A DNA stretch of 64,000 nucleotides from an uncultured Pseudomonadota bacterium (GCA_903869345.1 CAIPYM010000024.1:3703-67702); one strand, 5' to 3'; positions 4,277-62,240 are shown, counted from the first letter of the stretch. Notes: generated by a model not told the origin, from the sequence alone. Translations and numbers: made by a program.

Positions 4277-4639
4277 GCTCCCCGGCTCCGAGACCCAGGG
4301 CCCCCAAACGAATTCTCAAGCCCAGCATCATGGACAGGGGACGTGGGCTATCCTGCGACACGAGGCCCTGCAGGGGGCGCGACCCTCCATCTCCGGCTCT
4401 TTCCGGTAGTCCGAGAGTCTGTGAACTGGATCGCTTCGCTCGCGATGCCGACGGAGAGGACAGGATAAAAAGGAGAGCCCAATCCCTTTCTCGCGCCCGC
4501 CTTTGCAATCACGCGCACGGCAAGGACTGGAAGAACGCCATCGATCATGCCAGGAGCCCTATTATAGTCCATCCAGGTAAGATCCCTACATCCTGAAACG
4601 TTGGTTTTGAGAGGCGACGGTGAAGCGAACGCAGCGGGA

Positions 4640-4775
4640 CTCCTTCCCCCCTTGAGGGGGAAGGTTGGGAGGGGGGGTCCGCGAGGCGGAGCCGAGTGTC
4701 AACAAAAAGCTTGTTTTTGGAGAGTTTCAAGCCCCCTCACCCTAACCCTCTCCCTCGAGGGGAGAGGGAATCCCG
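4640..4775. repeat. Family B palindromic repeat element (MITE/REP-like), diverged left arm
   Basis: CTCCTTCCCCCCTTGAGGGGGAAGG... and CCCCCTCACCCTAACCCTCTCCCTCGAGGGGAGAGGGAATCCC; same arm sequence recurs at 23701-23830. Confidence 0.6.
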
Positions 4776-4804
4776 CCGTGCAAGGAGGAGAGGACATCCT
4801 CAAC

Positions 4805-4836
4805 TTTTAGGCAGATGGTTTTTTAGGCAGATGGTT
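4805..4836. repeat. Perfect tandem direct repeat 2 x 16 bp (TTTTAGGCAGATGGTT)
   Basis: Read directly from the sequence, about 105 bp upstream of the csoR start. Confidence 0.8.
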
Positions 4837-4921
4837 CCTCATCACCCCTGCAAGACATGTCGAGTTCTTGTTTGGATTGACGATAGAGATCGGCCCATCA
4901 GATCGACAGGGGGCTTGCTTG

Positions 4922-4943
4922 ATCCTATCCAGGTGGATAGGAT
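4922..4943. promoter_or_regulatory. Perfect 22-bp palindrome ATCCTATCCA-GG-TGGATAGGAT overlapping the RBS/start codon of the CsoR/RcnR gene; candidate operator
   Basis: 10+2+10 perfect inverted repeat; CsoR/RcnR repressors bind GC-tract-centred palindromes at their own promoters. Confidence 0.5.
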
Positions 4944-5202
4944 GCGATTCATGCAGCATCGCTCTCACCCTGCCATTGCCGTACGCCTCAAACGAGCCGA
5001 GGGGCATCTACGGTCGCTTATCACCATGATTGAAGAAGGCCGGAACTGCCTGGAGCTGGCCCAACAGCTTCATGCGGTCGAACGCGCCCTTAGCAATGCC
5101 AAGCATGAACTCATCCATGATCATATCGATCATTGCCTGGGCGATGGCGGCACAACAGGCGACGACCTCAAGGACATCAAGCAGCTCACCAAATACCTTT
5201 GA
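4942..5202 (+). CDS. CsoR/RcnR-family metal-sensing transcriptional repressor (DUF156)
   Basis: 86 aa from ATG 4942 (RBS AGGTGGA); RSLITMIEEGRNCLELAQQLHAVERALSNAKHELIHDHIDHCL carries the Cys/His metal ligands; the longer track ORF from 4696 reads through a repeat. Confidence 0.8.
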   Translation: MRFMQHRSHPAIAVRLKRAEGHLRSLITMIEEGRNCLELAQQLHAVERALSNAKHELIHDHIDHCLGDGGTTGDDLKDIKQLTKYL

Positions 5203-5219
5203 CGAGCAGGAGATTCATC

Positions 5220-6191
5220 ATGGGAAAAAGCAAGGTTCTGCGGCAGGCCCATCGCCACGGATGGATCTTTGGTGTGATCGGCCTTCTCGCGGGGGGCTTT
5301 TTGATGGTGTTCGTGCCGAGTCTCACCCCTGTTGCCAACTCTCTGTTTCTTTTTGCTGGCTTTCACATCGTCGGCGCGATTGTGATTCTGGCGACCCTTT
5401 GGTACGGCGGTCTGCGTGACCATTTTCGCCACACCTCGCCCCTCACTCCTCAGTTGAACTTCGGTTGGGACCGAGGATGGACGGTGGGGCTCGCGATTGC
5501 GGCCCTTATTGCCACGGCGTTCGCGGTGGTCCTTCAAGTATCGGCTCCAGAGTGGTGGATTCTGGCCTGTGGGATGCTCCTCATGGGCGCTTCATGGGGG
5601 GTCGGCTTTATCCTGATGTCAGGGTACCGTCATGCCGACCATGCTGTTCTCCCGATGGTTGACCTTCTTTCCGGGGATTCGGACGTCGTCTTGGATGCCG
5701 GATGTGGCGCAGGCCGAACCACACTTGCGCTGGCCGGCGCCTTACGGCACGGCCGAATCGTGGCCTTTGATCGCTTTGATGCAGCCTACATTGAAGACGG
5801 AGGAAGGGCCCTTCTGGAGCACAATCTCACTCTCGCAGGCCTCAAAGATCGCGTCCAGATTGAGACGGGAGACCTCGCGGTTCTGCCGTTTATGGACGCG
5901 AGCTTTAACAGCGTCGTGAGCACGAACGTTTACGACCACCTTGGATCCCAACGCGATCAAGCGATGCGCGAGACGTTTCGCGTCATGGTACCGGGGGGAC
6001 GTTTCCTGCTTGGCATTTCGGTGTGGAGTTGGGCGATGTTCGCCGTCGCTAGTTTTCTGTCTTTCGTTGTCCTGTCGCGTCGCCGCACCTGGCGTAAGCT
6101 GGCCGAGCGAATCGGCTTTACGGTCGACGGCGAATGGATGGTGAACGGCACCTGGTTCGTTCTTCTCAGAAAACCAGAAAGAATCGCATGA
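5220..6191 (+). CDS. Membrane-anchored class I SAM-dependent methyltransferase
   Basis: Start ATG 5220 with GGAG RBS; 4 N-terminal TM helices, then MTase motifs VLDAGCGAGRTTLALA, VAFD, PGGRFLL, then a C-terminal TM helix; stop overlaps the next gene start (ATGA). Confidence 0.7.
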   Translation: MGKSKVLRQAHRHGWIFGVIGLLAGGFLMVFVPSLTPVANSLFLFAGFHIVGAIVILATLWYGGLRDHFRHTSPLTPQLNFGWDRGWTVGLAIAALIATAFAVVLQVSAPEWWILACGMLLMGASWGVGFILMSGYRHADHAVLPMVDLLSGDSDVVLDAGCGAGRTTLALAGALRHGRIVAFDRFDAAYIEDGGRALLEHNLTLAGLKDRVQIETGDLAVLPFMDASFNSVVSTNVYDHLGSQRDQAMRETFRVMVPGGRFLLGISVWSWAMFAVASFLSFVVLSRRRTWRKLAERIGFTVDGEWMVNGTWFVLLRKPERIA

Positions 6192-6998: not shown

Positions 6999-7126
6999 CG
7001 TCACCCCGGCGAAAGCCGGGGTCCCTGGTTCAGCCGCCCCCGAAAAACGGCTCTGGATCCCGGCTTTCGCCGGGATGACGCGGGAGGGACAGAGCTAAAA
7101 AAAGGGCATTTTGTGCCGTGTCGCAG
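6999..7126. repeat. Family A palindromic element (MITE-like) with conserved tail
   Basis: CGTCACCCCGGCGAAAGCCGGGGTCC ... GGATCCCGGCTTTCGCCGGGATGACG, then GGGAGGGACAGAGCTAAAAAAAGGGCATTTTGTGCCGTGTCGCAG; related copies at 10728, 30530, 53290, 62094. Confidence 0.7.
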
Positions 7127-8727: not shown

Positions 8728-8935
8728 GCGCCGTTCTTGGCCTCTTTCCGAAGATCGGTCAAGCAGGACATGCGTTCGGCCAAAGAAAGGGCGTTGGCGA
8801 TGTTGGGGGGGTGTTGACGCGAAGGATGTAGAGCCGACCTCCGATAGAAGGCGCCGAACATCAGGCGTCGAAGGAGGCACAGAAAGGCTCCCTCGCCCTC
8901 CCCCACGGAAGAGAGGGAATCCTTCGGCGTCTCGC

Positions 8936-10399: not shown

Positions 10400-11224
10400 A
10401 TGATCGCCCTTGTTGACAGTGGCGTTGCGAATCTGACCTCCGTGAGGCTGGCGCTGTTGCGCCTCGGGGCGGAGGTGACGGTTACGGCAGACCCGGACAT
10501 CGTGCGCGGCGCGAGTCACGTTGTGCTGCCGGGGGTTGGCTCGGCGGGGCCCGCGATGGCCAAACTGCGGGAACGCGGGTTGATTGAGGTCCTTCAGGGC
10601 CTCACGCAGCCGCTCCTCGGCATTTGCCTCGGCATGCAGTTGTTGTTCGAGGATTCGGAGGAGGGCGCAGCGGGGGGCGGCGCAACATGCGGGGCAGGAG
10701 TTTGCGCGGCGGCGTGTTCACCCCCTTCCGTCACCCCGGCAAAGGCCGGGGTCCAGAGGGGAAACTCCCTCGCGTTCGAAAAAGAGGCCCTGGATTCCGG
10801 CTTTCCCCGGAAGGGCACCGAGGAGATTTTTCACGAACCGTCCTCCCGGCGAAAGCCGGGATCCAGGGAAACGGACGGGGGGGCGGTTGGGAACAGGGGG
10901 ACACGGACCTGCCTTGGGCTGATCCCTGGGCGGGTGGAGCTCCTCCCCGCCGCGCCCGAAACCCCCGTGCCGCACATGGGGTGGAGCCGCCTGACGTTGG
11001 AGCGCCCGGACCATCCCCTGCTTCACGCCATCCCCGCCGACGGGTACGTTTACTTTGTCCACAGCTACGCCGTGGTTCCAGGCCCCTTCACGCTCGCGAC
11101 GGCCCACCACGGAGTCCCCTTCACCGCCATCGCCGGGCGCGACAACGTCATGGGCTGCCAGTTCCACCCCGAACGCTCCGGCCCCCTCGGAGCCCAGGTG
11201 CTGCGGAATTTTGTGGGGATGTAG
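10400..11224 (+). CDS. hisH: Imidazole glycerol phosphate synthase glutaminase subunit HisH carrying an in-frame insertion of about 75 aa derived from a family A repeat
   Basis: MIALVDSGVANL, catalytic GICLGMQLLFE and C-terminal CQFHPERSG are all in one frame; between EEG and GLIPGRV the frame reads through repeat-derived sequence (SVTPAKAGVQ...SFPRKGT...SSRRKPGSRE). Confidence 0.8.
   Translation: MIALVDSGVANLTSVRLALLRLGAEVTVTADPDIVRGASHVVLPGVGSAGPAMAKLRERGLIEVLQGLTQPLLGICLGMQLLFEDSEEGAAGGGATCGAGVCAAACSPPSVTPAKAGVQRGNSLAFEKEALDSGFPRKGTEEIFHEPSSRRKPGSRETDGGAVGNRGTRTCLGLIPGRVELLPAAPETPVPHMGWSRLTLERPDHPLLHAIPADGYVYFVHSYAVVPGPFTLATAHHGVPFTAIAGRDNVMGCQFHPERSGPLGAQVLRNFVGM
10728..10868. repeat. 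Family A palindromic element inserted inside the hisH coding sequence
   Basis: CGTCACCCCGGCAAAGGCCGGGGTCC ... TGGATTCCGGCTTTCCCCGGAAGG ... TCCTCCCGGCGAAAGCCGGGATCCAGG; same hairpin modules as intergenic copies. Confidence 0.7.
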
Positions 11225-11281: not shown

Positions 11282-11329
11282 ATCCTGCCGTGGACAATTT
11301 GCCACATCCTGCCGTGGACAATTTGCCAC
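11282..11329. repeat. Perfect tandem direct repeat 2 x 24 bp (ATCCTGCCGTGGACAATTTGCCAC)
   Basis: Read directly; lies in an AT-rich intergenic stretch 30 bp upstream of the ORF at 11359; iteron/operator-like. Confidence 0.8.
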
Positions 11330-11358
11330 ATTGGAGCGGGAACACAAAAGAAAAAGGG

Positions 11359-23523: not shown

Positions 23524-23700
23524 GGTCCCCATTTCGCGGGCAAGGCGATTTCCGATTTCAGCCGCGACATCGAACCGAAGTTCCTCCGCGAGGTTGCTCC
23601 GGAAAAGGTGACGTTGCCGTGAGAATTCCTTTCTCTATAATCGGTCTCCAATAAAATGATCATGGATTTTTTGGGCAGACAGTTGAGAGAGGCACGGCGG

Positions 23701-23830
23701 GATTCCCTCTCCCCTTGAGGGAGAGGGTTAGGGTGAGGGGTCGTAAAAAGCAAGGGATTCGTAGGAGTTCAACACGCTTTTTGTTCAGGAACCCCTCACC
23801 CCGGCCCTCTCCCTCAAGGGGAGAGGGAGT
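23701..23830. repeat. Family B MITE with about 40-bp terminal inverted repeats
   Basis: GATTCCCTCTCCCCTTGAGGGAGAGGGTTAGGGTGAGGGG ... CCCCTCACCCCGGCCCTCTCCCTCAAGGGGAGAGGGAGTC. Confidence 0.7.
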
Positions 23831-23899
23831 CGCACCGCACCTCCTTCGAGGTCGGTCCTTCATCTGATTCCATGCTCATTTTATGTGAGTCGAGCTAGA

Positions 23900-24010
23900 A
23901 CGGAAAGAGCCGGGGATGAATCGCCGCGCCCCCTTCGGGGGGGCCTCGCGATGACAGCGAAGGGGACAGGCCTGAGAAAAAGGCCCTTGTGTGCCACGTC
24001 GCAGCACATC
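23900..24010. repeat. Degenerate family A tail copy
   Basis: GATGACAGCGAAGGGGACAGGCCTGAGAAAAAGGCCCTTGTGTGCCACGTCGCAG matches the tail found at 7081-7126 and 53404-53460. Confidence 0.5.
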
Positions 24011-30529: not shown

Positions 30530-30612
30530 CGTCATTCCGGCGAAAGCCGGAATCCAGGGCCACTTTCCGTGTCAAAATAAAAATGGACCCCGGCTTTCGC
30601 CGGGGTGACGAG
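30530..30612. repeat. Family A palindromic element (MITE-like)
   Basis: TCGTCATTCCGGCGAAAGCCGGAATCCAGGG ... GACCCCGGCTTTCGCCGGGGTGACGAGG. Confidence 0.7.
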
Positions 30613-53257: not shown

Positions 53258-53289
53258 CGTTTCCCGCGACGTCATTCCCTCGCCCCACA

Positions 53290-53462
53290 CGTGGGGAGAA
53301 GAGGGTTAGGGTTGAGGCCTGTTCCTACCGTCCCGACGAAAGCCGGATCCCTTTTCCTATTTTCACGAAAAAACGGCTCGGGATCCCGGCTTTCGCCGGG
53401 ATGACGGTGGGGGAGAGGGGACAGGACTGAGAAAAAGGTCCTTTTGTGCCGTGTCGCAGTCT
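53290..53462. repeat. Composite repeat: family B fragment plus family A element plus conserved tail
   Basis: GGGGAGAAGAGGGTTAGGGTTGAGG; CCGTCCCGACGAAAGCCGGATCCC ... GGATCCCGGCTTTCGCCGGGATGACGG; GGGGAGAGGGGACAGGACTGAGAAAAAGGTCCTTTTGTGCCGTGTCGCAG. Confidence 0.7.
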
Positions 53463-59447: not shown

Positions 59448-60026
59448 ATGCTGCTTTTAATTGATAACTACGACAGCTTTACCTACAACCTCGTTCACTA
59501 CCTGGGGACACTCGGGGCCGAGGTGGACGTGCGCCGAAACGACACCTTGTCGGCGACGGAAGCGTTGGCGTTGAAGCCCTCGCACATTGTCCTTTCGCCG
59601 GGACCTTGCGGGCCCGAACAGGCAGGGATTTGCCTGGATCTTTTGAGGCTTGTCGCGGCGGAGGGGAACGTGCCCCTCTTGGGCGTGTGCCTCGGGCATC
59701 AATGCCTCGGCCATGGGTTCGGGGGCGTTGTCGAGCGCGGGCCCGTGCCGGTTCACGGCAAGGTCAGCGCCGTTTATCATGAAGGGCAAGGGATTTTCCG
59801 GGGGATTCCCTCCCCGTTTGAGGCCACGCGCTACCATTCGCTGATTGTGCGGCGGGAGGGTTTGCCGGAGGACCTGACCGTGACAGCCACAACCGAGGAC
59901 GGGATTGTGATGGGCCTTCAGCACCGGACAAAACCTCTGCACGGCGTTCAGTTTCACCCGGAGAGCATCGCAACCCAGCACGGATTCGCGCTGCTCAAGA
60001 ACTTTCTTGAGGAAGGACGCACCTAA
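59448..60026 (+). CDS. trpG: Anthranilate synthase component II (glutamine amidotransferase)
   Basis: [26 protein letters not shown] triad motifs. Confidence 0.9.
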
Positions 60027-62093: not shown

Positions 62094-62240
62094 CGTCGTC
62101 CCGGCGAAGGCCGGGACCTCGAGACGTTAGGAGAGCGCGTGGAGGACTCCCATCGGGATCCCGACTTTCGTCGGGATGACGCTGAAAGGGAAGGGTGGGA
62201 CAGAAAGGCCCTCTCACGTTTTGGAGAATCCCTCGCCCCC
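62094..62240. repeat. Family A palindromic element plus tail
   Basis: CGTCGTCCCGGCGAAGGCCGGGACC ... GGGATCCCGACTTTCGTCGGGATGACG, then AAAGGGAAGGGTGGGACAGAAAGGCCCTCTCACG. Confidence 0.65.

Follow-up and report, generated by a model that had tools for sequence, protein, structure and literature searches.

The segment at positions 6999-7126 of the DNA analysed here (the window: 64,000 nucleotides from an uncultured Pseudomonadota bacterium, GCA_903869345.1, CAIPYM010000024.1:3703-67702) raises the question of whether two inverted palindromes and the conserved sequence behind them form one mobile element or a combination of separate repeats. Read from left to right, the segment opens with CGTCACCCCGGCGAAAGCCGGGGTCC; after a spacer of about 28 nt come GGATCCCGGCTTTCGCCGGGATGACG and a 46-nt stretch finishing in TTGTGCCGTGTCGCAG. 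The initial annotation had assigned it to the first of two families of MITE/REP-like palindromes (families A and B below) and had proposed that family A together with its conserved tail makes up a larger non-autonomous element. The reading preferred here, with a probability of roughly 0.8, is that short interspersed repeats of three kinds form a mosaic: REPs of the CGTC-1 family, BoxC elements and a lineage-specific tail.

Results and Discussion

Family A: units and pairs

Matches to the pattern GTCAYCCCGGCGAAAGCCGGGRTCC were counted with up to three mismatches allowed, and eight were obtained in the window against 0.00 expected from shuffles. Degenerate units were added to the pattern matches by a hairpin scan and by direct reading of the sequence, which brought the family to 11 units at five window loci; all five had been correctly located in the initial annotation (6999, 10728, 30530, 53329 and 62094). 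The units begin at 6999 (+) and 7054 (−); at 10729 (+), 10789 (−, degenerate) and 10839 (+) within hisH; at 30530 (+) and 30584 (−) beside ftsH; at 53329 (+, truncated) and 53380 (−) between rpsT and rpoN; and at 62094 (+) and 62155 (−) between trpC and trxA. Recurrence past the window was also observed: a sixth pair lies beyond the window end on the same contig (L125, 17375-17459, equivalent to window positions 68420-68504). Six family A loci in about 75 kb suggest a high density.

A well-formed unit is composed of CGTC, an 8-bp stem, a 4-nt loop and the tail CC(A/C). The CGTC start was present in all nine units recovered by the hairpin scan, the remaining two units being degenerate or truncated. 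Loops are GAAA, GAAG or AAAG, and tails are CCA, CCC or CTC. The 8-bp stem occurs in every unit, and its first two positions are AT in units of the alpha type, AC in those of the beta type and GT in one unit. Stem variation is of the compensated kind only, each of the stems ACCCCGGC, ATCCCGGC, ATTCCGGC, GTCCCGGC and ATCCCGAC being accompanied by its exact complement. When 15 units were aligned, changes on both sides were found at four of the eight stem pairs, and the covariation score was matched by none of 500 shuffles; one-sided changes (e.g., G-C to G-U) were not found among the 15. The lack of one-sided changes gives a weak hint that the constraint on the stems may act on DNA rather than on RNA.

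Head-out (HH) pairs were found at five of the six loci, with partly conserved spacers of 27-38 nt. The pair at 6999-7080 combines a beta unit (6999-7025, +, stem ACCCCGGC) with an alpha unit (7054-7080, −, stem ATCCCGGC), the CGTC ends pointing outward, and the whole folds into a single hairpin (−57.4 kcal/mol, z −8.8). The pair at 30530-30610 (alpha at 30530, +; beta at 30584, −) gave −47.1 kcal/mol and z −7.5, and the pair at 62094-62181 (stems GTCCCGGC and ATCCCGAC) gave −52.4 kcal/mol and z −4.6; the pairs thus fold as single long hairpins of 80-90 nt, with energies from −47 to −57 kcal/mol and z from −4.6 to −8.8. At 53329-53406 a truncated unit (53329, +) is joined to an alpha unit (53380-53406, −). 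The alpha member, present in four pairs, has the stem AT(C/T)CCGGC and follows a conserved inner flank, GAAAA(A)nGGCyCkGG; at 53380, unit and inner flank are 97% identical to 7043-7080 (38 nt). The beta member, which forms the other half of the alpha pairs, carries the stem ACCCCGGC. Because alpha and beta units are paired in this way and the inner flank is shared, the copied unit appears to be the whole pair of about 82 nt, as in REPINs. Target-site duplications, for which the initial annotation had proposed a check, were absent: no direct repeats were seen beside the family A pairs when the flanks were read directly. A G-rich tract often follows the GACG of the units, and it is also found in Niveispirillum and Sphingobium.

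Family A: identity and distribution

Judged by its sequence, family A is the CGTC-1 REP family, which has already been described and is not new; it was matched feature by feature to the definition given in PMC3733652. There, CGTC-1 REPs have an 8-bp stem whose first two positions are A and T, a 4-nt loop, a short tail near CCA, and a CGTC head that is sometimes TGTC or CCTC; they occur mostly as HH pairs with the tagged ends outside and spacers of 20-100 bp, their hosts are mostly alphaproteobacterial, and they are equated with Neisseria dRS3 and Rickettsia conorii RPE-6 (Di Nocera, De Gregorio and Rocco 2013, PMC3733652). The window units share with CGTC-1 the head, the 8-bp length of the stem, the loop and the tail, the HH pairs, the pairing of units with different stems, the positions downstream of genes, the occasional in-frame intragenic copies and the lack of a linked transposase. 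They depart from the description in that the beta units open the stem with AC instead of AT, some units bear a lineage-specific flank of 44 nt, and the host belongs to an undescribed uncultured lineage.

Among plasmids, near-identical A units and the full pair were found only in alphaproteobacterial megaplasmids, the hosts of similar units being Sphingobium, Novosphingobium, Sphingopyxis, Niveispirillum and Tistrella. The exact alpha 26-mer was present in at least 120 metagenome contigs from soil, rhizosphere and freshwater (loci L133-L252) and in only four viral contigs. An HH partner was found for 66 of the 132 metagenomic alpha copies listed, mostly 26-38 nt away and most commonly across a spacer of 31 nt. 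Many compensated stem variants were noted among the partners at these loci, several of which also contain short tandem GGGATGACG remnants after the alpha unit.

Search for a mobilising enzyme

In the REPIN-RAYT system, two inverted REPs and their spacer form one repeated unit that folds into a long hairpin (Bertels and Rainey 2011, PMC3116915), and the family A pairs are alike in this respect. It is nevertheless considered unlikely that they are REPINs moved by a RAYT whose gene lies in another part of the genome. The build would suit such a system (paired inverted REPs around a conserved spacer, with compensatory stems and without target duplication), and the visible DNA corresponds to about 2-3% of a typical genome, so that a single-copy RAYT gene could easily lie outside it. 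The tag, however, is CGTC and not the GTAG of REPIN-RAYT systems. The autonomous partner anticipated in the initial annotation (RAYT, or a transposase of the IS200/IS605 type) was not encountered either: genes for Y1/RAYT, IS200 or IS605 proteins were absent among the Pfam-annotated genes of the window with its extensions (−2.8 kb to +7.8 kb) and of the sister contig, a search that covered about 80 kb and is of low power. With E. coli RayT as the query, tblastn found no match, whether in the window and its extensions or in 668 kb of metagenome loci that carry the REP. The result agrees with the published lack of a transposase for CGTC REPs, since in CGTC-positive species the tyrosine-transposase genes are not flanked by CGTC repeats and no dedicated transposase was found (Di Nocera et al., PMC3733652). 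No later open-access paper that reports such a transposase was found.

Family B: BoxC elements

By comparison with the published consensus, family B is the intrastrand-triplex motif known as BoxC, later as PIT and later as TM_ECO (PMC4666352), and it too has already been described. The TM_ECO consensus, CCCTCNCCC N3-6 GGGNGAGGG N3 GGGNGAGGG with second loops of the types TTA and CCG (Holder et al. 2015, PMC4666352), was matched exactly at 23705-23739 (+), 23793-23827 (−) and 4734-4768 (−), and not once in 200 shuffles. The two palindrome families that had been proposed are therefore both far above chance.

The B pairs initially placed at 4640-4775 and 23701-23830 were confirmed, with limits of 4634-4781 and 23692-23843, and their arms are 93-98% alike. 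In the pair at 23692-23843 (−102.9 kcal/mol, z −11.2), the second loop is TTA in the (+) unit and CCG in the (−) unit. The pair at 4634-4781 joins the consensus unit at 4734-4768 (−) to a variant unit at 4643-4678 (+), in which all three blocks are altered together (CCTTCCCCC / GGGGGAAGG / GGAGGGGGG). The third block mirrors the purine block, GGGAGAGGG by GGGTGAGGG in the usual form and GGGGGAAGG by GGAGGGGGG, with one mismatch, in the variant. Under a triplex-type constraint, the pyrimidine, purine and mirror blocks would be expected to change jointly in this way, and the BoxC units of the window would have triplex potential. Holder et al. report motifs of the TM_ECO type from over 260 genomes, with triplex formation in vitro (PMC4666352).

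Two further B copies, initially placed at 53290 and 8880, turned out to be degenerate yet recognisable. The first, a BoxC-like unit at 53262-53320 (+) with a CGTCATT head, begins 5 nt past the rpsT stop codon; the second, at 8886-8925 (−), is partly deleted and lies upstream of guaA. A B-like match at 59802, inside the trpG coding sequence, was rejected as a chance match.

When the B pair was compared with plasmids by blastn, 435 records were obtained, including Klebsiella, E. coli, Aeromonas, Azospirillum, Sinorhizobium and Sphingobium; an E. coli BoxC copy is about 94% identical (CCCCTCTCCCTTGAGGGAGAGGGTTAGGGTGAGGG...CCCTCACCCCGGCCCTCTCCCACAGGGAGAGGG), and the full pair is present in Azospirillum lipoferum. 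Around the pair at 23692-23843 there are outer inverted flanks, ATAAAATGA..CATGGA, at 23650-23668 and 23866-23890. The same outer flank precedes an IS-interrupted BoxC unit in the sister contig L129 (4472-4546; 78% over 76 nt), so that the repeated BoxC element of this lineage appears to be longer than the published motif. With the E. coli BoxC/TM_ECO elements the window copies have in common the exact consensus, both loop types, the intergenic location and the inverted pairs; unlike the cases of Holder et al., they occur in an alphaproteobacterium-like MAG, include a three-block variant and have outer flanks.

The tail module and the one-element question

The tail is a module of 44 nt with three full copies (7083-7126, 23961-24004 and 53416-53459), in agreement with the three that had been placed at 7081, 23941 and 53404. 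Taken with its linker, the first copy (7081-7126, +) is composed of a G-rich linker, GGGACAGAGCT, an A-tract and TTGTGCCGTGTCGCAG, and it ends sharply at 7126. The second (53407-53459, +) ends 13 nt from the rpoN stop codon. The third (23958-24004, +) is situated beyond the pal terminator, directly after a TGTC-tagged hairpin with a long stem (23915-23957, −) that is a CGTC-like variant. The degenerate copy noted at 62185 is real and is a truncated remnant (62182-62215, +; GGGTGGGACAGAAAGGCCC). Two mosaic remnants were also recognised: 4354-4405 (−) is the counterpart of 23901-24004 minus the middle of the tail and includes a partial tail at 4354-4363 (−), and 4425-4475 (+) is a short REP variant to which the first half of the tail is attached (GGACAGGATAAAAAGG, 4449-4475). 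The first half of the tail gave two matches against 0.01 expected; its last 16-mer, taken alone, is not significant (three matches against 0.89 expected). Some A units run on into GGGACAGGmCTGAGAAAAAGGyCC, and three such sequences reach TTGTGCCGTGTCGCAG, after which similarity ends abruptly. The full tails adjoin the alpha units at 7054 and 53380 as well as the different hairpin at 23915-23957.

It is improbable that an A pair plus tail constitutes a single larger non-autonomous transposable element, i.e., a MITE of about 128 nt. The loci at 7 kb and 53 kb do agree, with order and orientation preserved, in the alpha unit plus inner flank (97% identity, 38 nt) and in the end of the tail (93%, 28 nt); three tail copies stop sharply at GTCGCAG, and partial tail starts adjoin other REP heads at 62182 and 4449. 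The tail, however, is missing from three of the six A pairs (10729, 30530 and window-equivalent 68420) and from all 132 listed metagenomic copies of the identical REP unit; it also stands after a different hairpin (23915-23957). REP and tail are separated by linkers of 5 to 22 nt, and conservation is far lower in the middle of the composite than at its ends. For the A-plus-tail composite, neither target-site duplications nor a matching left end was found, and the tail pattern had no matches in the metagenome contigs, viral contigs or plasmids scanned. Because the tail is missing from half of the pairs and from the metagenomic copies, and because it follows a different hairpin as well, it is best read as a lineage-specific extra-REP motif in a mosaic and not as the end of one composite transposon; given just three full copies, it may still have a role of its own, for example as a small RNA or a protein-binding site. 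Of the larger element that had been proposed, one part stands, in that the inverted A pairs exceed single REPs; the union of A and tail does not. The MITE-like designation was likewise abandoned, given that both families are known (CGTC-1, and BoxC, which is not known as a MITE) and that target duplications are absent; in addition, the only IS seen, of the IS110 family in L129, has ends unrelated to the repeats.

Several other identities for the tail were considered and rejected. It is unstructured, with z from −0.05 to −2.6 over either strand (copy 1: −1.4 on the (+) strand and −1.1 on the (−) strand), and a role as structured RNA was discarded on the basis of these values. No convincing match to a sigma-54 or sigma-70 promoter or to an IHF site was seen by eye, and there is no similarity to the ends of the IS110 element of L129. 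A search of a 596 Gb genome collection with a 17-nt tail pattern gave 120 loci, all of them single chance matches lacking extended similarity, the pattern being too short for a collection of this size.

The BIMEs of E. coli consist of REP palindromes interleaved with other short conserved motifs. The present arrangement is comparable to these and to the intergenic mosaics of Neisseria, the motifs interleaved with REP palindromes here being the tail, G-rich tracts and BoxC fragments. It differs from both in that the motif sequences are unrelated and that no protein-binding site (e.g., for IHF) was recognised.

Gene context and function

The elements neighbour genes for an RcnA-like nickel/cobalt efflux transporter, FtsH, S20 and TrpC, and the partner genes encode GuaA, a DLH-family hydrolase, RpoN, TrxA, UvrC, a repressor of the RicR/CsoR family (RcnR-like) and Pal. 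Convergent gene pairs enclose four of the loci (rcnA-like/guaA, rpsT/rpoN, trpC/trxA and TPR/pal), co-directional pairs enclose three (ftsH/DLH-family hydrolase, uvrC/RicR-family repressor and SBP/permease), and one locus is internal to a gene (hisH). The siting at gene ends after rcnA, ftsH, rpsT and trpC is thus borne out in the main, the elements being mainly found at 3′ ends, with the locus inside hisH as an exception. The pair in L125 separates the gene of an amino-acid-binding protein from that of its ABC permease, which is the classical hisJ-hisQ position of REPs; in one gene call the permease starts at an ATG in the REP head GGGATGACG, and the resulting N-terminal extension is probably spurious. 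Upstream of the gene for the RicR/CsoR-family (RcnR-like) repressor, a perfect tandem duplication was noted at 4805-4836 (16 nt x2, TTTTAGGCAGATGGTT). The Pal protein, when taken from the first ATG of its reading frame, matched no recorded entry.

No Rfam family was found at gathering threshold in the window or by E-value at the elements, and tRNA, tmRNA and rRNA genes are absent from the window; the repeats are therefore not flanks of RNA genes, the explanation that the initial annotation had named as one that would overturn its reading. A promoter scan of the three tail-bearing loci gave a single promoter-like match, outside the elements.

The initial annotation had also proposed that the elements serve as terminators. 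As transcription terminators of the adjacent genes they would be well placed, 5-250 nt downstream of stop codons, and their hairpins are very stable, but this function is held to be very unlikely. A scan for hairpins followed by T-runs gave no terminator-like sites at the three tail-bearing loci. By direct reading, a separate hairpin was found just past the stop codon of the rcnA-like gene, and pal proved to be followed by a GC hairpin and T-run; the pal hairpin had not been flagged, which means that the scan misses some sites. One A cluster is translated within hisH. PIT/BoxC elements are reported to have neither promoter nor terminator activity and never to stand beside mobility genes (PMC4666352).

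In enterobacteria, the REPs of hisJ-hisQ and malE-malF, which the SBP/permease pair resembles in position, shield the upstream mRNA from 3′ exonucleases. By analogy, the pairs that are transcribed would most plausibly act as hairpin barriers to 3′ exonucleases and not as intrinsic terminators.

The hisH insertion

Peptides derived from the repeats were found in open reading frames (VTPAKAGVQ, LDSGFPRKG, SSRRKPGSR and SFRRKPESR), as the initial annotation had expected. The gene hisH (10400-11224) encodes a protein of 274 aa, compared with 193-215 aa in the best 120 homologues, and contains an in-frame insertion of 231 nt (10664-10894, +) with three A units (10729-10755, +; 10789-10815, −, degenerate; 10839-10865, +) and G-rich flanks. 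The 77 extra residues follow the conserved SEEG motif and are absent from the best 120 homologues. Cys76, His256 and Glu258, the conserved residues of the catalytic site, do not vary among the aligned sequences. In the AlphaFold model, pLDDT exceeds 90 for 173 residues and is below 50 for residues 96-162; in view of these low values, the insertion is predicted to form a disordered surface loop on a confident core. In-frame REP clusters that encode 43-82 aa have been reported previously. A second perfect tandem duplication (11282-11331, 24 nt x2.1) was noted just past hisH.

IS110 insertion and assembly breaks at BoxC

The window is 100% identical to overlapping contigs of several ENA and Logan assemblies. 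Wherever they overlap it, sister contigs are 100% or 99.99% identical to it (a single gap or mismatch), so that no empty sites were available among them for comparison; one contig of 10.4 kb differs by a single gap. L129 matches the window only from 23714 rightwards; to the left of this point the gene content differs and an IS110-family element (about 1.4 kb, 4548-5950) is present, with a DEDD transposase (4753-5709; PF01548, PF02371). The element is inserted exactly in the BoxC loop, ...CCCTCTCCCCT | IS | TGTGGGAGAGGGTTAGGGTGAGGGG, with CT at both junctions, and the uninterrupted counterpart of this BoxC unit is window 23705-23739. The hairpin loop of BoxC is thus shown to serve as a target for insertion of an IS110-family element in the sister contig.

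IS110 elements are known to target REPs (Tobes and Pareja 2006, PMC1525189), and a palindrome whose loop holds a DEDD element of about 1.4 kb is in line with the REP-targeting IS110/IS1111 elements (PMC1525189; bridge RNA/seekRNA, PMC11208160, PMC11187229); the target here, unlike theirs, is a BoxC unit and not a classical REP. The presence of an IS110-family element in the hairpin loop also contrasts with the absence of adjacent mobility genes in PMC4666352. It is highly improbable that the alpha REP and tail are the conserved end of a separate, lineage-specific element or small-RNA gene and that CGTC REPs and BoxC are moved or maintained by RNA-guided IS110-type recombinases that target hairpin loops, a scheme under which an IS110-type recombinase would be the mobilising enzyme of CGTC REPs that the 2013 survey did not find.

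Two further assemblies break in or at the BoxC pair: k141_413137 ends at about 23781 (by coordinate mapping), and the Logan contig L130 starts at 23842. The breaks at the pair (23714-23842) reflect either rearrangement or assembly ambiguity, including a possible mis-join in the window contig. They fit the reported instability of TM loci and the reported link between triplexes and rearrangement.

Conclusions

Under the preferred reading, that of a mosaic of CGTC-1 REPs, BoxC elements and a lineage-specific tail, family A would be made up of head-out alpha/beta pairs copied as a REPIN-like (non-autonomous mobile) unit of about 82 nt. Family B combines a polypyrimidine block with the purine complement of that block and with a G-rich third block in mirror order, and its units form inverted pairs. 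The tail, which adjoins the CGTC head in certain units, can be compared with the non-REP motifs of BIMEs and Neisseria mosaics. The pairs may spread as non-autonomous palindromes, recognised as single-strand DNA hairpins by an enzyme encoded elsewhere, and would persist where they are tolerated, which here means behind genes, in the gaps between cistrons and, once, within a surface loop of HisH.

The host is an uncultured lineage that is probably alphaproteobacterial, as judged from the names of distant HisH homologues and from the hosts of similar REPs. The nearest HisH homologues with organism names (55-60% identity) come from Alphaproteobacteria, Pseudomonadota or Bdellovibrionales MAGs, and GuaA and HisH each stand alone in their clusters when about 15 billion proteins are grouped at 90% identity.

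The outcome is mostly a correction: the repeats are to be masked or annotated as REP and BoxC, and not as hypothetical proteins or a new class of element. The use of BoxC as an insertion site by an IS110-family element, together with the assembly breaks, may be of specialist interest. The 26-nt CGTC REP unit is very widespread in environmental metagenomes, yet no enzyme that mobilises it has been reported. For the organism itself, hisH, which is apparently intact by its sequence, would seem to tolerate a REP-derived loop of 77 residues.
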